From assembly GCF_050920415.1 (NCBI RefSeq), contig NZ_CP169309.1: a stretch of 64,000 bases of DNA. One strand, 5' to 3'. The notes under the pieces were generated by a model. That model saw nothing but the letters and a program-made list of their open reading frames with translations. It did not search any database and was not told the origin of the DNA. The position numbers and the translations under genes are program-made. Shown in pieces: positions 1 through 12,390 of the stretch; within the stretch, counting starts at the first letter, position 1, and each line of letters opens with the position of its first letter. Source of the DNA: Escherichia coli (GTDB lineage Bacteria; Pseudomonadota; Gammaproteobacteria; Enterobacterales; Enterobacteriaceae).

Positions 1-51
1 GCGCCATTTCAGCCGATGCGAATGCAGTTTTTCATTAATGAGCACACTCAT
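1..51 (-). CDS. tauC: Taurine ABC transporter permease TauC, first 17 codons only (gene continues beyond window start)
   Basis: Reverse-strand ATG at 49-51 overlaps the tauB stop; translation [17 protein letters not shown] matches a TauC N-terminus; expected operon position after tauB. Confidence 0.6.
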
Positions 52-815
52 GAGAACGCCTCCCGTTGCTCAAATACGCGGCTTAAAACATATTCGCGCA
101 TGGCGATGAATTGTGGATCGGACTTGATGCTGCGGCTCGGTTCCCCGGCAACAAAGCGGCGGGCGAAGTTGAGCGGCAGGCGTTCCAGCACGCGGCCTGG
201 GCCGGGTGAAAGCAGAACCAGTTCAGTCGCCATAAACACCGCTTCTTCTATATCGTGGGTAATCAACAGCACCTGCTTGCCCGTCTCCTGCCAGAGTTTC
301 AGCAGCAGGGTTTGCATCTGGTCGCGGGTGAAGGCGTCCAGCGCGCCAAACGGTTCGTCGAGTAATAACAGCTGGGGATTTGCCGCCAGCGCGCGGGCAA
401 TCCCCACCCGCTGACGTTGACCACCGGAAAGCTGCCAGATGTAGCGTTTTTCTGCGCCTTCCAGCCCCACTTTTTTCACCATCTGGTGTGCGATTTCCAG
501 TCGCTGCATTTTCTCTACACCTGCCAGTTGCAGGCCGAACGCCACGTTGTCCTGTACATTGCGCCACGGTAACAGCCCTTCATTCTGAAAAACTACGCCA
601 CGCTCTGCTCCCGGTCCCTGAATACCCTTACCCGCCAGTTGAATGCTGCCATGCTGATAAGGCACAAAACCAGCAATCAAATTCAGCAACGTAGTTTTGC
701 CGCAGCCAGACGGCCCCAGCACCACCAGAAGCTCGCCGCTTTCCAGCGTCAGGTTGATATCTTCCAGCGCCGGTTTGCCGCCATAATCGGCATAGAGATG
801 AGAGACTTGCAGCAT
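48..815 (-). CDS. tauB: Taurine ABC transporter ATP-binding protein
   Basis: 255 aa ORF with Walker [13 protein letters not shown] signature LSGGQRQR and Walker B LLLDEP; near-identical to TauB as recalled; directly downstream of tauA. Confidence 0.95.
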
Positions 816-827
816 TTTCGTCTCCTT

Positions 828-1790
828 TTATTGCACAAAGCGTGAGGTAACGTACTGGCTGTAATCCTTCGCCACAGCGGGAACTTTGCCCTGATCTTTC
901 AAAAACTGGGCGGTATCGATGATCGCTTTGTTCACCGGTCCAGTCAGTTCTGCCGTTTGTTGCTGCGGCGTCAGATAGGTGTTTCCTTTAACCAGCCCCG
1001 GAACGTCACCTTCCGGCACACCGCTTAAACGCGCCAGTTTGCTGATGTTTTCCGGCTGTTTCAGCCACGCGTCTGGGTTAGCAATGTACGGTTGCTGAGC
1101 ATCGATGGCGCTTTTAGCGAACGCTTTCACTACCTCAGGATGTTTCTCGGCAAAATCTTTGCGCACTACCCAAACATCCAGCGTTGGCGCGCCCCACTGC
1201 CCGACCTGTTCAGAATCGGTCAGCACCTTGCCGTCTTTTTCCAGTGCGTTAACCGCCGGTGCCCAGACATAAGCACCATCAATGTCTCCCCGCTGCCAGG
1301 CGGCGATAATCGCAGGCGGCTGCAGGTTCACAATCTCCACTTGCCCGGGTTTAATGCCCCAGTGTTTCAGCGCCGCCAGCAAGCTGTAATGCGTGGTGGA
1401 GATAAACGGTACGGCAATGCGTTTGCCAATCAGATCTTCCGGTTTGCTGATGGTTTTCTTCACCACCAGCGCTTCGGAGTTACCCAGTTTTGACGCCAGC
1501 AAGAAGACTTCAATCGGCACCTGTTGGCTGGCTGCAACCGCTAATGGGCTGGAACCGAGGTTGCCGATTTGCACATCGCCTGAAGCCAGCGCCCGCACGA
1601 TGCTGGCTCCGCTGTCAAACTTGCGCCAGTCCACCGTCGCCCCGCTCTCTTTAGCAAAGGTGTTATCAGCCTGAGCTACTTTCGCCGGTTCAGCGGAGGT
1701 TTGATAGGCCACGGTGACGTTCACCGCCTGTGCCTGAAAAGCGATGAATGCCAGTGCGGCAAGAAGTGTGTTACGCGATGAAATTGCCAT
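828..1790 (-). CDS. tauA: Taurine ABC transporter periplasmic binding protein
   Basis: 320 aa ORF with N-terminal signal peptide; SsuA/TauA family; matches TauA length and sequence as recalled. Confidence 0.95.
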   Translation of the reverse strand: MAISSRNTLLAALAFIAFQAQAVNVTVAYQTSAEPAKVAQADNTFAKESGATVDWRKFDSGASIVRALASGDVQIGNLGSSPLAVAASQQVPIEVFLLASKLGNSEALVVKKTISKPEDLIGKRIAVPFISTTHYSLLAALKHWGIKPGQVEIVNLQPPAIIAAWQRGDIDGAYVWAPAVNALEKDGKVLTDSEQVGQWGAPTLDVWVVRKDFAEKHPEVVKAFAKSAIDAQQPYIANPDAWLKQPENISKLARLSGVPEGDVPGLVKGNTYLTPQQQTAELTGPVNKAIIDTAQFLKDQGKVPAVAKDYSQYVTSRFVQ

Positions 1791-2092
1791 GATTGTCTGC
1801 TCCCCTGTCTTGTTATGGGAGCAGTATTTCGTTGCTGGTCAGTTTGATAAAGGAATTAAAACGTCTTGTTAAGAACAAAGCGTTTTTAGAAAAAAACTGG
1901 CAATGGTTAGCGAGTTTACGCATTTTGCAGCTTGGGCGAATGTAGCATGCCGATTCACAAACCAGATCAGATGTTCGCGCTCCGGCAAATTATTGCCATT
2001 TTGTTACATCCATTCCATATCTGTCGCTGGTTGATTGCCAGCGACGCGCCGTGATGCATGATAGGAGAATGAGATAATAAGAGAAGAAAAGT

Positions 2093-2722
2093 ATGATTAG
2101 GGTTGTGCTGGTGGATGACCATGTGGTGGTGCGCTCTGGCTTCGCACAGTTACTCTCTCTGGAAGACGATCTGGAGGTCATTGGTCAGTACAGTTGTGCC
2201 GCGCAGGCATGGTCGGCATTAACTCATAATGACGTTAATGTTGCCGTCATTGATATCGCCATGCCGGACGAAAATGGCCTCAGTCTGCTTAAGCGCCTGC
2301 GTGCACAAAAACCGCAATTTCGCGCCATTATTCTTAGCATTTATGACGCGCCCACCTTTGTGCAAAGCGCGCTGGATGCCGGTGCCAGCGGCTATTTGAC
2401 CAAACGCTGTGGGCCGGAAGAGTTAGTACAGGCGGTGCGCTCGGTCGGGCTGGGCGGGCATTATCTCTGTGCCGATGCAATTCGGGCTTTACGCGGCGGC
2501 GGGCAACCTGCCCAGGCGCTGGAAATTCTCACCCCACGAGAACGTGAAGTGTTTGATTTACTGGTCAAAGGAGACAGCGTTAAAGAGATCGCCTTTAAAC
2601 TCGAACTCAGTCATAAAACGGTACATGTGCATCGCGCCAATGTGCTGGGAAAACTGAACTGCCATAGCACCATTGAACTGGTACATTTTGCGCTCGACCA
2701 CCATCTGCTGGCGGGGCATTAA
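2093..2722 (+). CDS. NarL/UhpA-family response regulator (receiver + LuxR-type HTH), UhpA paralog
   Basis: 209 aa; receiver motifs VLVDDH and DIAMPDENG; C-terminal LuxR HTH (LTPREREVFDLL...KTVHVHRANVLGKL); roughly 50% identity to UhpA by eye; stop overlaps the kinase start (TAATG). Confidence 0.85.
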   Translation: MIRVVLVDDHVVVRSGFAQLLSLEDDLEVIGQYSCAAQAWSALTHNDVNVAVIDIAMPDENGLSLLKRLRAQKPQFRAIILSIYDAPTFVQSALDAGASGYLTKRCGPEELVQAVRSVGLGGHYLCADAIRALRGGGQPAQALEILTPREREVFDLLVKGDSVKEIAFKLELSHKTVHVHRANVLGKLNCHSTIELVHFALDHHLLAGH

Positions 2723-4263
2723 TGTCGCGTAACCTTCGTCATTGGGTGATTTCGCTGTTTATTGTGCTGGCCTGGGGAAGCGGCTGGCTGATGTTGTGGA
2801 CGCTCAGCTTTTATCTGACCAATAACGGTCAACAGGCAGTGTTATTTCTGCCGCACGGAGTTTACCTCGCTCTTCTTATTTTGCTCTCTCGCCGTTACTG
2901 GCCTGCGTTGGTGCACCCCCCTTTGCTGATGATGTTCTGGCTGCACAGCGAGCAACTGTTGAACGGCTATCTCATGCTGGCAACGCCGGTTATTAGCCTG
3001 CTTCCTGCCATCCTTGCACAAAACGTCTGGCACCGTTTTCCACTTTACTGGCAGCGTCTGACGTTGCTGTTAGCCTCAGTAACAGCAGCTTCATTGCTGA
3101 ATACAGCCATGCTAACCCCTTTTATGTCAGGCCCAATAATGCTGCCCGGTCTGACCTCATTTACCGGCAGCGTATTGTTGACGCCGTTTGTCTATCTCAT
3201 CTTTGAGTTTCTGCGCCAGCAGCATCGCTATCAGCTTCTGAGACTCGATACGCATAATCCCCCCTTGCGAACCTCTTTAATCATCTGGTGTAGCCTATTT
3301 TTTATTATTGGTATCGGCACCCAGATGGTGTTGTCGCCTGAAATCGAACGCCTGCTGCTGATCGTGGTATTTCTACCCAATGTGGTCATGGCCTGGAAAT
3401 TTGGCTGGCAAGGTGGCGTACTCTCGGGGCTTTTGGGCAGCATGATGATCACTATTGCCCGCCAGATTGGCGTGGGCTTTAGTAACCTGGTGGAACTGGA
3501 GATTTTTCTCGCAACCCAGGCATTGCTGGGAATTGGCCTGGGCATTGCCATCAGTCGCCAGCAACATCTGGCGCTAAACCTGCATCATTACCGTCAGCGA
3601 CTGGAGGCAGAACTGGCAGCACGGCGGGCATTGGCTGAAAAGCTGATCCACACCGAGGAAGACACGCGTAAAAGCCTGGCTCGCGAGCTGCACGACGAAA
3701 TCGGTCAGAACATTACCGCCATTCAGATCCAGTCGCAACTGGTGACGCGGGCACGCGATCCGGCGCAAGTTCATTCCGCAGCTAGCCAAATCAACGAACT
3801 CGCCCGCCGCATTCATCTCTCCACCCGCCAGTTGCTGCGCCAGTTGCGGCCACCCGCGCTTGATGAACTGACATTCCGCGAAGCATTACTTCATCTGATT
3901 AATGAATTTGCCTTTAGTGAACGCGGCATTCATTGCCAGTTTACCTATCAACTAACCACCACGCCAGAAAACGAAACGGTTCGCTTTACACTGTATCGGT
4001 TATTGCAGGAGTTACTCAATAACGTCTGTAAACACGCCGAAGCCAGCGAAGTGACGATTATTCTGCGCCAGCAGGGAGAGATATTGCACCTGGAGGTCAG
4101 CGACAACGGTATAGGAATCGCCAGCGGGAAAATGACCGGATTTGGCATTCAGGGGATGCGTGAACGCATCAGTGCCCTGGGCGGCGACTTAACGCTCGAA
4201 AAACATAACGGTACGCGGGTAATTGTTAACCTGCCCACATTTTTGCAACAAATCGCCGGATAA
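2722..4263 (+). CDS. Sensor histidine kinase, UhpB-like (membrane MASE1-type N-terminus, HisKA_3 H-box, HATPase)
   Basis: 513 aa; multi-TM N-terminal half; H-box ELHDEIGQNITAI; ATPase motifs DNGIGI and GFGIQGMRER; translationally coupled to the upstream regulator. Confidence 0.85.
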   Translation: MSRNLRHWVISLFIVLAWGSGWLMLWTLSFYLTNNGQQAVLFLPHGVYLALLILLSRRYWPALVHPPLLMMFWLHSEQLLNGYLMLATPVISLLPAILAQNVWHRFPLYWQRLTLLLASVTAASLLNTAMLTPFMSGPIMLPGLTSFTGSVLLTPFVYLIFEFLRQQHRYQLLRLDTHNPPLRTSLIIWCSLFFIIGIGTQMVLSPEIERLLLIVVFLPNVVMAWKFGWQGGVLSGLLGSMMITIARQIGVGFSNLVELEIFLATQALLGIGLGIAISRQQHLALNLHHYRQRLEAELAARRALAEKLIHTEEDTRKSLARELHDEIGQNITAIQIQSQLVTRARDPAQVHSAASQINELARRIHLSTRQLLRQLRPPALDELTFREALLHLINEFAFSERGIHCQFTYQLTTTPENETVRFTLYRLLQELLNNVCKHAEASEVTIILRQQGEILHLEVSDNGIGIASGKMTGFGIQGMRERISALGGDLTLEKHNGTRVIVNLPTFLQQIAG

Positions 4264-4347
4264 CCAGGAAAAAGTCTTAGGCATCCCGGATTTTCTCTCA
4301 TCCTCTTTCACTTTCATTTTCATATAGTCAGCAACATGGAGACGACC

Positions 4348-5652
4348 ATGCACGCGCGTTCAGCGAGAGAGATTAATCAATGCTACCGGACATTACGTCC
4401 GCGATTGCTGATGTGCATGATTATTGGCTACGCCGCATTTTATCTGACGCGAAAAAGCGTGAATTACGTCCTTCCGGCGCTGCAAACCGACCTCGGACTG
4501 GATAAAGGCGACATTGGCCTGCTGGGTTCGCTGTTTTATCTCAGCTACGGATTGTCGAAATTTACCGCCGGACTGTGGCATGACAGCCACGGACAACGCG
4601 GTTTTATGGGCGTCGGCTTGTTCGCCACTGGGCTATTGAACGTGGTGTTTGCCTTTGGCGAATCACTTACGCTTCTGCTTGTGGTCTGGACACTGAACGG
4701 ATTTTTTCAAGGCTGGGGGTGGCCACCGTGTGCCCGCTTACTGACCCATTGGTACTCCCGTAATGAACGTGGTTTCTGGTGGGGCTGCTGGAATATGTCG
4801 ATCAACATTGGCGGAGCGATTATTCCGCTGATTAGCGCCTTTGCCGCCCACTGGTGGGGCTGGCAGGCCGCGATGCTGACACCGGGGATTATCAGCATGG
4901 CATTAGGGATCTGGTTAACGCTACAGCTTAAAGGCACCCCCCAGGAAGAGGGATTACCGACGGTGGGTCAGTGGCGTCACGATCCGCTGGAATTACGTCA
5001 GGAACAACAAAGTCCGCCGATGGGGCTGTGGCAAATGTTGCGCACCACAATGCTGCAAAATCCGATGATCTGGCTGCTGGGTGTCTCTTATGTACTGGTT
5101 TATGTGATCCGGATTGCGTTAAACGACTGGGGCAATATCTGGCTGACGGAAAGCCACGGCGTCAACCTACTCAGCGCCAACGCCACGGTAATGCTGTTTG
5201 AAGTGGGCGGCTTACTCGGCGCGTTATTTGCCGGATGGGGTTCGGATTTGCTGTTTAGCGGGCAGCGAGCCCCCATGATTTTGCTGTTTACCCTGGGGTT
5301 GATGGTTTCGGTCGCTGCACTCTGGTTGGCACCGGTTCATCACTATGCCCTTCTGGCTGTGTGCTTTTTTACTGTGGGCTTTTTTGTCTTTGGCCCGCAA
5401 ATGCTGATTGGACTTGCGGCAGTGGAATGTGGACACAAAGCTGCGGCGGGTTCAATCACCGGATTTCTCGGTCTGTTCGCCTATCTCGGTGCGGCGCTGG
5501 CAGGCTGGCCATTGTCGCTGGTTATCGAACGCTACGGCTGGTCAGGAATGTTCAGTTTACTCTCGGTCGCCGCAGTACTTATGGGTTTACTGCTGATGCC
5601 GTTACTGATGGCGGGCATCACCACCACTCACGCTCGAAGGATAAAACAATGA
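4348..5652 (+). CDS. MFS organophosphate:phosphate antiporter-family protein, UhpC-like sensor/transporter
   Basis: 12-TM MFS with strong similarity to UhpC/UhpT family (e.g. FGPQMLIG..AAVEC, GFLGLFAYLGAALAGWPL); start chosen at ATG 4348 with GGAG 6 nt upstream; in-frame alternative ATG at 4336. Confidence 0.85.
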   Translation: MHARSAREINQCYRTLRPRLLMCMIIGYAAFYLTRKSVNYVLPALQTDLGLDKGDIGLLGSLFYLSYGLSKFTAGLWHDSHGQRGFMGVGLFATGLLNVVFAFGESLTLLLVVWTLNGFFQGWGWPPCARLLTHWYSRNERGFWWGCWNMSINIGGAIIPLISAFAAHWWGWQAAMLTPGIISMALGIWLTLQLKGTPQEEGLPTVGQWRHDPLELRQEQQSPPMGLWQMLRTTMLQNPMIWLLGVSYVLVYVIRIALNDWGNIWLTESHGVNLLSANATVMLFEVGGLLGALFAGWGSDLLFSGQRAPMILLFTLGLMVSVAALWLAPVHHYALLAVCFFTVGFFVFGPQMLIGLAAVECGHKAAAGSITGFLGLFAYLGAALAGWPLSLVIERYGWSGMFSLLSVAAVLMGLLLMPLLMAGITTTHARRIKQ

Positions 5653-6680
5653 AAATGCCCCTTACCTCTACTCTGATTGCTTCTGCCGTTGCGCTGGCAA
5701 CCTTAACGGGTGCCGCACAAGCGAAAGGTCGACTGGTGGTCTATTGCAGCGCCACCAATGAAATGTGTGAGACCGAAACCAAAGCGTTTGGCGAGAAATA
5801 TGATGTGAAAACCTCGTTTATCCGCAACGGCTCCGGTAGCACCCTGGCAAAAGTCGATGCTGAAAAGAAAAACCCACAGGCTGACGTCTGGTACGGCGGC
5901 ACCTTAGACCCGCAGTCGCAGGCCGGCGAGATGGGTCTGTTACAGGCATATAAATCGCCTAACCTTGAACAGATCATGGAAAAATTCCGCGATCCGGCAA
6001 AAGTGAAAGGAAACCTTTCCTCCGCCGTTTATGTGGGGATCCTCGGGTTTGGCGTCAACACAGAGCGTCTGAAAGAGAAAAACCTGCCTGTGCCGAAGTG
6101 CTGGAAAGATCTCACCAAACCTGAATATAAAGGCGAAATTCAGATTGCCGATCCACAAAGTTCCGGTACCGCCTACACCGCGCTGGCTACCTTTGCGCAG
6201 CTGTGGGGGGAAGATCAGGCCTTTGATTATCTAAAACAACTTAACACCAACGTCTCCCAGTACACCAAATCAGGCATTGCCCCGGCACGTAACGCCGCCC
6301 GCGGCGAAACGGCGATTGGTATTGGTTTCCTGCATGACTACTCGCTGGAAAAAGAACAGGGCGCACCACTGGAGTTGATTTCCCCGTGTGAAGGTACGGG
6401 CTACGAAATTGGCGGCGTCAGCATTCTGAAAGGCGCGCGCAACCTCGACAACGCCAAACTGTTTGTGGACTGGGTATTATCAAAAGAAGCTCAGGAACTG
6501 GCGTGGAAGAAAGGGAAGTCTTATCAGATCCTGACCAATACCACCGCCGAAACGTCGCCAAATTCGCTGAAGCTCGACGACCTGAAATTAATCAACTACG
6601 ACATGGATAAATACGGTTCCACGGATGTTCGTAAGGCATTGATTAATAAATGGGTCAGCGAAGTGAAGATGGGTAAATAA
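5649..6680 (+). CDS. afuA: Periplasmic substrate-binding protein, FbpA/AfuA family (putative sugar-phosphate binding)
   Basis: Start ATG 5649 overlaps MFS stop (ATGA) with AAGGA 7 nt upstream; signal peptide MKMPLTSTLIASAVALATLTGAAQA; FbpA-fold family; track ORF 5361 is an upstream in-frame extension that overlaps the MFS gene. Confidence 0.8.
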   Translation: MKMPLTSTLIASAVALATLTGAAQAKGRLVVYCSATNEMCETETKAFGEKYDVKTSFIRNGSGSTLAKVDAEKKNPQADVWYGGTLDPQSQAGEMGLLQAYKSPNLEQIMEKFRDPAKVKGNLSSAVYVGILGFGVNTERLKEKNLPVPKCWKDLTKPEYKGEIQIADPQSSGTAYTALATFAQLWGEDQAFDYLKQLNTNVSQYTKSGIAPARNAARGETAIGIGFLHDYSLEKEQGAPLELISPCEGTGYEIGGVSILKGARNLDNAKLFVDWVLSKEAQELAWKKGKSYQILTNTTAETSPNSLKLDDLKLINYDMDKYGSTDVRKALINKWVSEVKMGK

Positions 6681-6748
6681 ACCCGCATTGCGTGCATTTG
6701 CCGGGCGCAGCACAAACGCCTGCCCCGGCCAACCATACCGGAACTGCT

Positions 6749-8827
6749 ATGTCACAGACACTTGCACTCCATCCCGTGAAAAAGCGGGATGCGATTTTCC
6801 TTTGGGTTTTGCTGGGCTGGCTGGCATTTATCCTGTTGCCGAGCTGGAGTCTCGATTATGGTCTGCTGGAGTCCACGAGTGATGAGATCCTCGAGGCGTA
6901 CAGCTGGTCGCATTTTAATATCAGCTGGCTGTGGTATTTACTCCCGAGTTTGCTGCTGGTTCGCCCGTTTAATGAGGCCAAACGCGAGCAGCGTAGCCGT
7001 CATTATTTTGATGCCGGCTGGGCATTGCTTTGTTTAGCGTTTATGGTCATCAGTGCCACCATCGTTGGCCGCGGTCTAGGCTACGCCGCCATCGTGCTGT
7101 TTATCGAATTAAGCGCGATAATGACGCTGGCCTTAACCCGCCTCGAATGGCTGGGTGGCGACCGCTTTGTGATCGGCTCGCTGATTGCGATTGTGGCGCT
7201 GATTGGCATTTTTATCGTCTGGCCGAGCATCGCCATTTTTATCCCGATGTTCACCAACGACGCGGGAGGGTTCGCCCCACTGGCGTTTATGAATGTGCTC
7301 TCGCAGGCACATATTGTTCAGGTGATCGTCAACTCCATCGTCTTATCGATAGCGGTGGGTATTGGCTGTACTTTCTTCGGTCTGGTGCTGGCGATATATA
7401 CCACGCGCATCGCCAAACGCAGCGCCGTAATCGGCCGCATCTTTTCCATTCTGCCAATTGTCACGCCACCGTTTGTGGTCGGCTTAGGCGTTACGCTCAT
7501 GATGGGGCGCTCCGGCTACATAACGGAATTTATGGTGGAGTGGTTTGGGCTGACCAACACCAACTGGCTGTATGGTTTTACCGGGATCTGGCTGGCACAG
7601 GTCCTGGCATTCACGCCAATGGCTTTTATGATCCTTGATGGGGCCATTAAAACCATTCATCCCTCGCTGGAAGAGGCCTCCTACACCCTGCGTGCCAGCC
7701 GCTGGCAAACCTTTAACGGCGTGTTTGTGCCGTTGCTAAAGCCCGCGCTCGCCAATGCCTTTTTAATCGTCGTGGTACAGTCACTGGCTGATTTCAGTAA
7801 CCCGCTGGTGCTTGGCGGCAACTTCGACGTACTGGCGACGCAAATTTACTTCTACATTACCGGCTCGCAGCTGGATTATCAGGCCGCCAGCACCCTTGGC
7901 GCTTTCCTGCTGCTGTTCTCGCTACTGGTGTTCTGCGTCCAGTATATGTGGATTGGTAAACGCTCTTACGTCACGGTTTCCGGAAAGTCCTACCGCGGCG
8001 ATGTCCAGCCACTACCGGTCACCCTGGTGTGGAGCGTGGTCGCCATACTTGCGATATGGATTGTCTTTAACGCCCTGCTCTATGGCAGCATTTTCTACGG
8101 CAGCTTCACCGTGAACTGGGGCGTAGACTACACCCTAACGCTGGATAACTTTATCAAGTTATTTGGTCAGGGGATGAGCGACGGCGCGTGGCCTTCACTG
8201 TTAGATACCTTGCTCTACGCCGGGATTGCCGCACCCATTACCGCTATCTTTGGCCTGCTCATCGCCTGGGTGGTGGTGCGCCAACAATTCAAAGGCAAAA
8301 AGACCATCGAGTTCACCACCATGTTGTGCTTTGCCGTACCGGGTACGGTGGCGGGCGTCTCGTATATTCTCGCCTTTAACAGCGCTCCGGTTTATCTCAC
8401 CGGAACGGCGGCAATTGTGATTATCTCGATGGTGATGCGTAACGTTCCGGTGGGTATTCGCGCCGGGATTGCGGGTCTGGGGCAGATCGACAAATCGCTG
8501 GATGAAGCCTCACTTAGCCTGCGTGCGGGTTCCCTGCGAACCATTACGCACATTTTACTGCCGTTGTTACGCCCAGCTATTCTCTCGGCCCTGATTTACA
8601 GCTTTGTGCGGGCTATCACGACGGTCAGCGCCATCGTCTTTCTCGTCACGCCGGACACACGCGTGGCAACCGCCTACATCCTTAACCGCGTAGAAGACGG
8701 CGAATATGGCGTAGCCATCGCCTACGGTTCGATTCTGATCGTGGTGATGCTGGCGATTATTTTCCTCTTTGACTGGCTGATCGGTGAAGCACGTATTTCC
8801 CGTTCTAAAGCCAAAAACCAGGCGTAA
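6749..8827 (+). CDS. afuB: Fused two-domain ABC permease, FbpB/AfuB family
   Basis: About 690 aa polytopic membrane protein with duplicated permease halves typical of FbpB; start at ATG 6749 is tentative (track ORF begins at GTG 6692). Confidence 0.8.
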
Positions 8828-8838
8828 TGGAGCGCACT

Positions 8839-9885
8839 ATGAGTCAGAAAAATTTTGTGGAACTGCGCAACGTCACTAAACGATTCGGCAGTAATACGGT
8901 TATCGACAATATCAATCTCACCATCCCACAAGGGCAAATGGTGACGCTGCTCGGTCCTTCCGGATGCGGCAAAACCACCATTCTGCGTCTGGTTGCCGGG
9001 CTGGAAAAACCGAGCGAAGGGCAAATTTTTATAGATGGCGAAGATGTCACGCATCGTTCCATTCAGCAACGCGATATCTGCATGGTGTTTCAGTCATACG
9101 CTCTGTTCCCACATATGTCGCTGGGCGAAAACGTTGGCTATGGGCTGAAAATGCTTGGCGTGTCGCGTAGTGAAGTGAAGCAGCGGGTGAAAGATGCGCT
9201 AGCAATGGTGGATCTGGAAGGATTCGAAGACCGCTATGTCGACCAGATTTCCGGTGGTCAGCAACAGCGTGTGGCTCTGGCCCGTGCGTTGATCCTTAAG
9301 CCTAAAGTGCTGCTGTTTGATGAGCCGTTAAGTAACCTCGATGCCAACCTGCGTCGCAGCATGCGCGATAAAATCCGCGAGCTGCAAAAGCAATTTAACA
9401 TCACTTCGCTCTATGTGACTCACGATCAAAGTGAAGCTTTCGCGGTGTCCGACACCGTGTTGGTGATGAATAAAGGTCACATCATGCAGATTGGTTCACC
9501 GCAGGATCTCTATCGTCAGCCCGCCTCCCGCTTTATGGCAAGTTTTATGGGCGACGCCAACCTGTTCCCGGCGAACTTTAGCGAAGAGTATGTCGATATC
9601 TACGGTTATCGCCTGCCGCGCGCGGCGCATTTCCCGGCGCAAGGTAGCGGCACCGTCGGCGTTCGCCCGGAAGCCATCACCTTAAGCAATCACGGCGAAG
9701 AGAGTCAGCGTTGTGTTATTCGCCATGTCGCCTACATGGGGCCGCAGTACGAAGTGACCGTAGAATGGCATGGTCAGGAGATTTTATTGCAAGTCAACGC
9801 CACCCGTTTACAGCCCGATATTGGTGAGCACTATTACCTCGAAATCCATCCTTACGGGATGTTTGTTTTAGCGGATGCGGCATAA
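8839..9885 (+). CDS. afuC: ABC transporter ATP-binding protein, FbpC/AfuC family with C-terminal TOBE-like domain
   Basis: Walker [10 protein letters not shown], signature [15 protein letters not shown], Walker B LLFDEP; start ATG 8839 with GGAG 6 nt upstream; alternative ATG 8827 overlaps the afuB stop. Confidence 0.8.
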
Positions 9886-9897
9886 AAATAGCAGATA

Positions 9898-9927
9898 AAC
9901 GGTCCCAACCTGTCTTGAGGGACCGTT
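9898..9927 (+). terminator. Hairpin downstream of afuC (possible intrinsic terminator, weak U-tract)
   Basis: Inverted repeat AACGGTCCC / GGGACCGTT with 12-nt loop, 13 nt after the afuC stop; followed by CACCTGTTT. Confidence 0.35.
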
Positions 9928-9967
9928 CACCTGTTTAAACGTCGGACAACAATTATTCTCCGGCGTT

Positions 9968-10020
9968 ATATACTATAGGGGGGTATGCATTGACATATAG
10001 CATACCCCCCTATAGTATAT
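9968..10020. promoter_or_regulatory. frmR operator/promoter: perfect 21-bp inverted repeat with G6/C6 tracts flanking a TTGACA -35
   Basis: ATATACTATAGGGGGGTATGC (9968-9988) and its exact reverse complement (10000-10020); spacer contains TTGACA (9990-9995); TAGTAT -10 candidate at 10013-10018; 25 bp upstream of frmR. Confidence 0.8.
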
Positions 10021-10044
10021 TGCGTGCAGATGATGAGGTGCGAA

Positions 10045-10320
10045 ATGCCCAGTACTCCGGAAGAGAAGAAAAAGGTCCTTACTCGAGTTCGTCGTATTCG
10101 GGGGCAAATTGATGCTCTGGAACGGTCGCTGGAGGGTGATGCCGAATGCCGTGCCATACTCCAACAGATCGCTGCCGTTCGGGGCGCGGCTAACGGGCTG
10201 ATGGCAGAAGTGCTTGAAAGCCATATCCGGGAAACGTTTGACCGAAATGACTGCTACAGCCGCGAAGTCAGCCAATCCGTTGACGACACTATTGAACTGG
10301 TTCGTGCCTATCTTAAATAG
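10045..10320 (+). CDS. frmR: Formaldehyde-responsive transcriptional repressor (CsoR/RcnR family)
   Basis: 91 aa; [30 protein letters not shown]... matches FrmR; track ORF starts at an upstream GTG (10024). Confidence 0.95.
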
Positions 10321-10324
10321 CTGA

Positions 10325-11464
<1,140 letters not shown>

Positions 11465-11556: not shown

Positions 11557-12390
11557 ATGGAACTCATTGAAAAACATGCCAGCTTTGGCGGCTGGCAAAA
11601 TGTGTATCGGCATTATTCCCAATCACTGAAATGTGAAATGAATGTCGGCGTCTATCTCCCACCAAAAGCCGGGAATGAAAAATTGCCGGTACTGTACTGG
11701 CTTTCGGGCCTGACCTGTAACGAGCAGAATTTCATTACTAAATCGGGGATGCAACGTTACGCGGCTGAGCACAACATTATTGTTGTTGCGCCAGACACCA
11801 GTCCGCGAGGCAGTCATGTCGCAGATGCCGACCGTTACGATCTCGGACAAGGTGCCGGGTTTTACCTGAACGCAACGCAAGCGCCGTGGAATGAACATTA
11901 CAAAATGTATGATTATATCCACAACGAGCTGCCGGATTTAGTGATGCAACATTTTCCGGCAACGGAAAGAAAGTCAATCGCGGGTCATTCAATGGGCGGG
12001 CTGGGCGCGCTGGTGCTGGCGTTACGTAACCCAGATGAATATGTCAGCGTCTCGGCGTTTTCGCCCATTGTCTCCCCATCGCAAGTACCGTGGGGACAGC
12101 AAGCCTTTACCGCATATCTTGGTGAAAATAAAGATGCCTGGTTGGATTACGATCCGGTGAGTCTTATTTCACAAGGTCAACGCGTTGCGGAAATCATGGT
12201 TGATCAGGGGTTGAGTGATGATTTTTACGCAGAACAGCTGCGGACTCCAAATCTTGAAAAGATCTGCCAGGAGATGAATATCAAAACGTTAATCCGTTAT
12301 CACGAGGGTTATGATCACAGCTATTATTTTGTCTCCAGTTTTATTGGCGAGCATATTGCCTACCACGCCAATAAACTGAATATGCGTTGA
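11557..12390 (+). CDS. frmB: S-formylglutathione hydrolase (esterase D family)
   Basis: 277 aa; GHSMGG serine hydrolase motif; matches FrmB; operon position after frmA. Confidence 0.95.
   Translation: MELIEKHASFGGWQNVYRHYSQSLKCEMNVGVYLPPKAGNEKLPVLYWLSGLTCNEQNFITKSGMQRYAAEHNIIVVAPDTSPRGSHVADADRYDLGQGAGFYLNATQAPWNEHYKMYDYIHNELPDLVMQHFPATERKSIAGHSMGGLGALVLALRNPDEYVSVSAFSPIVSPSQVPWGQQAFTAYLGENKDAWLDYDPVSLISQGQRVAEIMVDQGLSDDFYAEQLRTPNLEKICQEMNIKTLIRYHEGYDHSYYFVSSFIGEHIAYHANKLNMR

Follow-up and report, generated by a model that had tools for sequence, protein, structure and literature searches.

An exact inverted repeat at the Escherichia coli frmR promoter matches the published double FrmR operator

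A perfect inverted repeat occupies positions 9968–10020 of a stretch of Escherichia coli DNA of 64,000 nucleotides (hereafter the window). It is almost certainly the operator-promoter of frmRAB, an autoregulated operon for formaldehyde detoxification, at which FrmR blocks RNA polymerase until formaldehyde releases it. The element is already known: it is the double FrmR site described for Pfrm, and there is nothing new in its identity. Denby et al. (2016, Sci Rep 6:38879; PMC5146963) described the large inverted repeat of Pfrm as two type I sites, each with the motif ATAC-N9-GTAT. In the CsoR/RcnR family, a type I operator consists of a G/C tract of 3–8 bp flanked by an AT-rich inverted repeat (PMC5146963). 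An earlier reading made from the sequence only had proposed a CsoR/RcnR-family operator, probably the known FrmR site, and both the published K-12 Pfrm and the FrmR binding data support it.

The repeat reads ATATACTATAGGGGGGTATGC-ATTGACATATA-GCATACCCCCCTATAGTATAT (left arm, spacer and right arm). A repeat search returned arms of 21 nt each at 9968–9988 and 10000–10020 that are 100% complementary and 11 nt apart, with a G6 tract at 9978–9983 and a C6 tract at 10005–10010, exactly the perfect 21-bp repeat with G6/C6 tracts and 11-bp spacer that the sequence-only reading had described. It is the sole inverted repeat of at least 16 nt with arms at most 80 nt apart in the 64-kb window, and the two others returned by the same search are imperfect palindromes of 14–15 nt. 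By rough arithmetic (64000 x 80 / 4^21), about 1e-6 perfect 21-nt inverted repeats whose arms are at most 80 nt apart are expected by chance in 64 kb, and the repeat is thus confirmed as real and far beyond chance. We found no further copy of the repeat arm with up to three mismatches in the 64-kb window, and 100 shuffles likewise gave 0. The repeat and the features that surround it are arranged as follows.

9943–9967, plus strand: conserved flank upstream of the repeat, common to E. coli genomes with different upstream neighbours.
9968–9988, plus strand: left arm, the distal candidate FrmR site, upstream of the −35; core ATAC-TATAGGGGG-GTAT at 9970–9986, centre 9978.
9989–9999, plus strand: 11-nt spacer ATTGACATATA, carrying the −35 hexamer TTGACA at 9990–9995 (promoter scan).
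10000–10020, plus strand: right arm, the proximal candidate FrmR site; core ATAC-CCCCCTATA-GTAT at 10002–10018, centre 10010.
10013–10018, plus strand: −10 hexamer TAGTAT, inside the right arm (promoter scan).
10023–10026, plus strand: probable transcription start region (the published repeat centre of −29, applied to 9994, gives about 10023).
10035–10038, plus strand: GAGG resembling a Shine-Dalgarno sequence, 6 nt ahead of the frmR ATG; the alignment shows GAGGT to be conserved.
10045–10320, plus strand: frmR, encoding a formaldehyde-sensing CsoR/RcnR-family repressor of 91 amino acids (open reading frame and annotation WP_001141271.1).
10355–11464, plus strand: frmA, encoding S-(hydroxymethyl)glutathione dehydrogenase; a regulated gene (open reading frame and annotation).
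11557–12390, plus strand: frmB/fghA, encoding S-formylglutathione hydrolase; the last operon gene (open reading frame and annotation).

Each arm reads ATAC-TATA-GGGGG-GTAT or its complement (the tract is G6 if the first G of GTAT is counted), and the two cores are the only exact ATAC-N9-GTAT occurrences in the 64-kb window. Both arms display the G/C tract within an AT-rich inverted repeat that characterizes type I operators. Because the two FrmR-type sites are mirror images of each other, the pair amounts to a single perfect inverted repeat with 21-nt arms. The interpretation of the 21-bp repeat as an operator therefore stands, with one amendment: its arms are not half-sites, since each of them holds a full ATAC-N9-GTAT. 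By our count the site centres are 32 bp apart, about three helical turns, compared with the 31 bp given by Denby et al. (PMC5146963).

The −35 and −10 hexamers, separated by a 17-nt gap, match 10 of the 12 sigma-70 consensus positions and constitute the only sigma-70-like match that the promoter scan returned in 9700–10400. The scan thereby confirmed two points of the sequence-only reading, namely that TTGACA lies in the spacer and that the right arm overlaps the −10. The sites overlap the −10 and flank the −35, a placement in which, as had been argued, a bound repressor would occlude RNA polymerase. A divergent promoter on the minus strand was considered and rejected, as the scan of 9700–10400 gave the frmR-directed promoter only. 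We infer the exact transcription start, 5–8 nt past the −10, from the published position of the repeat centre, and that position of −29 itself rests on a predicted start in Denby et al. (PMC5146963).

The repeat ends 24 bp before the frmR ATG at 10045 and overlaps the promoter of an operon whose first gene codes for a CsoR/RcnR-family repressor. Its position, its identity to K-12 and the gene order frmR-frmA-frmB are those of E. coli Pfrm. The frmR product scores 189 bits against the NCBIfam FrmR equivalog NF008464 (cut-off 133) and matches PDB entry 5lbm, ‘Transcriptional repressor FrmR’, with E = 4e-55; CsoR/InrS relatives are also found in the PDB. Pro2, Cys35 and His60 are all present in the encoded protein.

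The functional evidence comes from the K-12 version, for which repression by FrmR has been shown in vivo as well as in vitro. Purified FrmR binds the K-12 promoter DNA with a Kd of ~220 nM, compared with ~3600 nM for a control promoter, and formaldehyde dissociates the FrmR–Pfrm complex (PMC5146963). FrmR inhibits frmRAB transcription in vitro, formaldehyde lifts this inhibition, and the mechanism involves a Pro2–Cys35 methylene bridge between subunits (PMC5146963). In line with these results, the constitutive promoter J23100 carrying ATAC-N9-GTAT sites over its −35/−10 gained FrmR-dependent repression (PMC11127321). The same paper reports that repression was lost from a promoter cut back to a point just upstream of the sites. 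The loss in the truncated promoter indicates that flanking DNA may contribute, and the flank in the window differs from that of K-12 beyond 15–25 bp. Denby et al. assigned the two sites by sequence and modelling, and raised the possibility that a single tetramer contacts both sites via both of its faces (PMC5146963); our search of published work on E. coli FrmR for site-resolved footprinting found none.

These observations suggest a mechanism in which, without formaldehyde, tetrameric FrmR on both sites would exclude sigma-70 RNA polymerase from the promoter, the distal site adjoining the −35 and the proximal site containing the −10. Upon exposure to formaldehyde, a Pro2–Cys35 cross-link between FrmR subunits would remodel the DNA-binding surface and release FrmR. 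This release would permit transcription of frmR, frmA and frmB, with frmR thus subject to autoregulation. We infer that the arms are bound by one tetramer each, not bridged by a single tetramer, and that occlusion is the mode of repression.

Alignment with the K-12 frmR upstream region, which the sequence-only reading had named as a check, bears out the assignment: 52 of the 53 bases are identical, and the sites, the tracts, the −35, the −10 and the distance to the frmR ATG are all shared. At the one differing position, 10001, which adjoins the proximal ATAC box, the window has C and K-12 has A. The repeat is consequently matched at 21 of 21 positions in the window, and at 20 of 21 in K-12. 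An 801-bp query around the repeat was 100% identical to E. coli strain MFDS1022581 (megablast), and one FrmR accession, WP_001141271.1, is common to K-12 and a strain identical to the window.

Across the species, 5391 of 5426 complete E. coli genomes contain the 95-bp promoter region, normally in one place per genome. The exact 53-bp element occurs in 3554 of the 5135 matched complete-genome records, and among 80 metagenome contigs 68 carry the perfect form and 12 the K-12 form. The majority allele in E. coli is thus the perfect repeat (C10001), rather than the form found in K-12. Template-switch mutations can occur at the inner ends of quasi-palindromes, and position 10001 is such a place.

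One complete genome carries an altered spacer. In E. coli FJ_Ec_21 (GCF_036362825.1, NZ_CP143627.1; locus L083, 3001–3053), the exact reverse complement stands in place of the central 15 bp of the K-12-type element (GCATTGACATATAGA), with the arms and flanks unchanged. The flipped segment corresponds to window positions 9987–10001 and includes the −35 TTGACA; TTGACA-17-TAGTAT in this genome points away from frmR, and towards frmR only 9 of 12 positions match. Either a true inversion between the arms or a misassembly may account for the flip. It is found in 1 of 5392 complete-genome records, the sole record without full-length co-linear coverage, and the flip-specific pattern was seen in 0 metagenome contigs, compared with 84 stretches in the normal orientation. 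We rejected recurrent spacer inversion on the basis of these counts. A fimS-like invertible promoter, which would combine inverted repeats around a promoter segment with a dedicated recombinase and the presence of both orientations in populations, is likewise not what we see: no recombinase is annotated nearby, the flipped segment measures only 11–15 bp, and there is no sign of a programmed switch. That the perfect inverted repeat doubles as a substrate for inversion of its own spacer is, in our judgement, a long shot. If the flip were real and recurrent, whether through recombination between the arms or template switching at the quasi-palindrome, the operator would have a second role as an infrequent mutational switch that turns formaldehyde detoxification on or off or redirects it, and the same inversion process could explain the mirrored evolution of both arms.

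We scanned one genome per species and obtained 80 FrmR-homologue loci, 52–100% identical to E. coli FrmR, of which 76 have a frmA homologue immediately downstream. An exact ATAC-N9-GTAT lies at most 160 bp upstream of frmR at 65 of the 80 loci, compared with 0.24 expected from shuffles, and the motif occurs only 3 times elsewhere in the 242.6 kb of these loci. Conservation upstream of orthologous regulators is thus what we observe, and the sequence-only reading, which had staked its interpretation on the repeat being present at other frmRAB loci, is upheld both by the 5391 E. coli genomes and by the core motif at the 65 homologue loci. In Escherichia loci the two sites stand at −75 and −43 from the ATG. 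The consensus of the proximal site is ATAC-TCCCC-TATA-GTAT, whose TATAGTAT end doubles as the −10, and the proximal ATAC...TATAGTAT is invariant in a 14-sequence alignment. The alignments show no variation in the ATAC/GTAT boxes, in the TTG of the −35 or in TATAGTAT; the pairing is not invariant.

A second site, 32–35 bp upstream with TTGAC in between, is present at 17 loci, in all of which FrmR is at least 76% identical to that of E. coli. These include Escherichia, an Edwardsiella plasmid, Pantoea, Enterobacter, Providencia, Aeromonas, Erwinia, Serratia, Morganella and Deefgea. Most of the distant frmR loci have a single site, without the large repeat. The G6/C6 tract is confined to Escherichia, other loci having, for example, TATAGTGGA / TCCACTATA. 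The unit conserved across Proteobacteria is a single ATAC-N9-GTAT overlapping the −10.

Among the scanned loci, those of a Citrobacter freundii MAG, Klebsiella grimontii and Maribrevibacterium harenarium (L008, L011 and L013) carry homologues ~91% identical to E. coli FrmR and a single ATAC-N9-GTAT at −44 (ATACTCCGATGCAGTAT); no frmA homologue was found within 1.5 kb downstream of frmR at any of the three. As the three genera are unrelated, their common arrangement suggests a mobile cassette with a different regulatory target. Separately, plasmid 1 of Edwardsiella anguillarum (NZ_CP006665.1, 127 kb) carries frmR-frmA with a two-site operator, and the E. coli records contain two plasmid matches to the promoter. 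The frmR-frmA cassette seems to be transferred horizontally.

Most two-site loci keep mirrored cores, with 7–9 of 9 positions in agreement. In Erwinia endophytica (L018, 1422–1471), the sites ATACTGGGATATAGTAT and ATACTGGTGTATAGTAT stand in direct orientation with TTGACC between them, their cores agreeing at 2 of 9 positions when compared as inverted and at 7 of 9 when compared as direct copies. The Deefgea two-site locus shows neither a mirrored nor a direct arrangement. Because the Erwinia endophytica sites are direct, the two-site layout does not need a large inverted repeat.

This geometry speaks to a reading in which the repeat functions through a hairpin or cruciform in the nucleic acid itself, serving as a terminator or read-through barrier from the upstream gene or as a structured RNA, and the protein boxes are incidental. 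We consider it very improbable. The predicted stem is indeed very stable (−23.5 kcal/mol folded as single-stranded DNA, z = −8.0 against shuffles), the mirrored N9 cores of most two-site loci include a change of GGGGG to GTGGA accompanied by CCCCC to TCCAC, and in a 15-promoter alignment 85% of cells are paired, compared with 81.6% in shuffles (2 of 500 shuffles as high). In the same alignment, however, covariation is weak after control for composition, with 7 double-change pairs against 5.0 expected and 48 of 500 shuffles as high. The stem is followed by TTGCGTGC, without a T-run, and the terminator scan does not flag it, such that the stem-loop with a directly following T-run that makes an intrinsic (Rho-independent) terminator is not found here. 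Moreover, the frm transcript should start downstream, which would place the repeat outside the frm mRNA, and Rfam, searched at a permissive E-value, gives only sub-threshold matches to generic hairpins (miRNA precursors, and tsr25 with 38 bits where the gathering score is 63). The single-site layout of most distant loci and the combination of invariant boxes with variable pairing also argue against a hairpin. Indeed, the hairpin seems already largely refuted by Erwinia endophytica, which keeps both sites and the −35 in direct orientation, and by Deefgea, which has neither arrangement.

There is very little to recommend the Ni/Co sensor paralogue RcnR, or another regulator, as the protein that (also) binds here. 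Both FrmR and RcnR recognise G6 tracts flanked by TACT-like repeats, the TACT...GGGGGG...TAT of the arm resembles the RcnR motif TACTGGGGGGNAGTA (quoted in PMC5146963), and FrmR scores 68 bits on the RcnR model. The RcnR motif nevertheless has no match at the locus with up to three mismatches, so the hallmark of an RcnR operator is missing there; its four matches in the window lie elsewhere, at chance level. In the FrmR site, ATA separates TACT from G6. Furthermore, formaldehyde relieved the repression of Salmonella frmRA, whereas none of the metals tested, cobalt and nickel among them, did so (PMC4528141).

The sequence-only reading had also taken the left edge of the repeat for the boundary with the accessory module upstream. 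This was wrong, as the junction lies 15–25 bp further left. Homology to K-12-type genomes begins at query position 354, which is window position 9953 (megablast), and in a pairwise alignment with K-12 TTATTCTCC is common from 9953, with partial similarity from the CGGA at 9943. Metagenome contigs represent at least three upstream contexts, and their sequences come together at the same ...CCGGATAAATT ahead of the repeat. Because the junction with variable DNA lies outside the repeat, at ~9943–9953, the repeat belongs to the conserved frm side. Beyond these 15–25 bp, the window carries the afu/fbpABC module, whereas K-12 carries yaiO. In the region ~1–9950, the accessory block is located between tauABCD and frmR; its members are a response regulator, a MASE1 histidine kinase, a uhpC-like MFS gene and an ABC transporter ending in fbpC, the stop of which is at 9885; K-12 has yaiP/yaiO in its place. 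The fbpC-frmR junction occurs in only 450 of 5426 complete E. coli genomes, and none of the ~75 classifiable metagenome contigs (of 80) shows this context.

A second, imperfect inverted repeat lies in the accessory DNA at 9892–9933, right after the fbpC stop. It reads GGTCCC...GGGACC, with 15-nt arms that are 87% complementary and a 12-nt loop, and is followed by GTTCACCTGTTTAAA. This stem-loop, which went unflagged in the terminator scan, could form the end of the afu/fbpABC transcript.

An alternative in which the repeat at 9968–10020 is a structural end of the afu/fbpABC module or a mobile element, or a site at which either recombines, and marks the module's insertion point, is next to impossible: the fbpC stop and the start of K-12 homology are close by, and one genome has an inversion between the arms, but the idea is refuted by module-free genomes, in which the repeat stands equally far from frmR (in K-12 next to yaiO and in at least one other context), and also against it are the junction's occurrence in 450 genomes compared with 5391 for the repeat, its position 15–25 bp outside the repeat, the single copy per genome without a second copy in the window, and the lack of an annotated recombinase or transposase gene adjoining.

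As the published FrmR operator, already in use in formaldehyde and methylglyoxal biosensors, the element leaves the field unchanged. The analysis makes small additions: the perfect repeat as the majority allele, the single conserved site, the clade-limited distal site, the Escherichia-specific G6/C6 tract and the one flipped spacer. These could help engineers of Pfrm sensors and those who model how CsoR/RcnR proteins read DNA.

Apart from K-12 Pfrm itself, two known systems resemble the FrmR operator most closely. The tandem E. coli RcnR sites between rcnR and rcnA (Iwig and Chivers 2009), as summarised in PMC5146963, are likewise two type I sites with a G/C tract in an AT-rich inverted repeat, and like those of Pfrm they overlap the promoter and are bound by a tetrameric CsoR/RcnR-family repressor. 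The two systems differ in motif (TACTGGGGGGNAGTA for RcnR, ATAC-N9-GTAT at Pfrm), in the spacing of the site centres (19 bp for RcnR, 32 bp here) and in effector (Ni/Co for RcnR, formaldehyde for FrmR). The frmRA operator of Salmonella Typhimurium (Osman et al. 2015, 2016; PMC4528141, PMC5016687) also has a C6 tract in a T/A-rich inverted repeat upstream of frmR, and formaldehyde weakens FrmR binding there as it does in E. coli. Mutation of one flanking T/A-rich repeat abolishes binding of Salmonella FrmR (PMC5016687). In Salmonella, two FrmR tetramers were fitted to one 33-bp probe (PMC4528141), whereas E. coli has two separated sites, and the Salmonella authors call the operator-promoter sequences distinct from those of E. 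coli (PMC5016687). By the same account, the two FrmR proteins are 52% identical and Salmonella has no frmB (PMC5016687).
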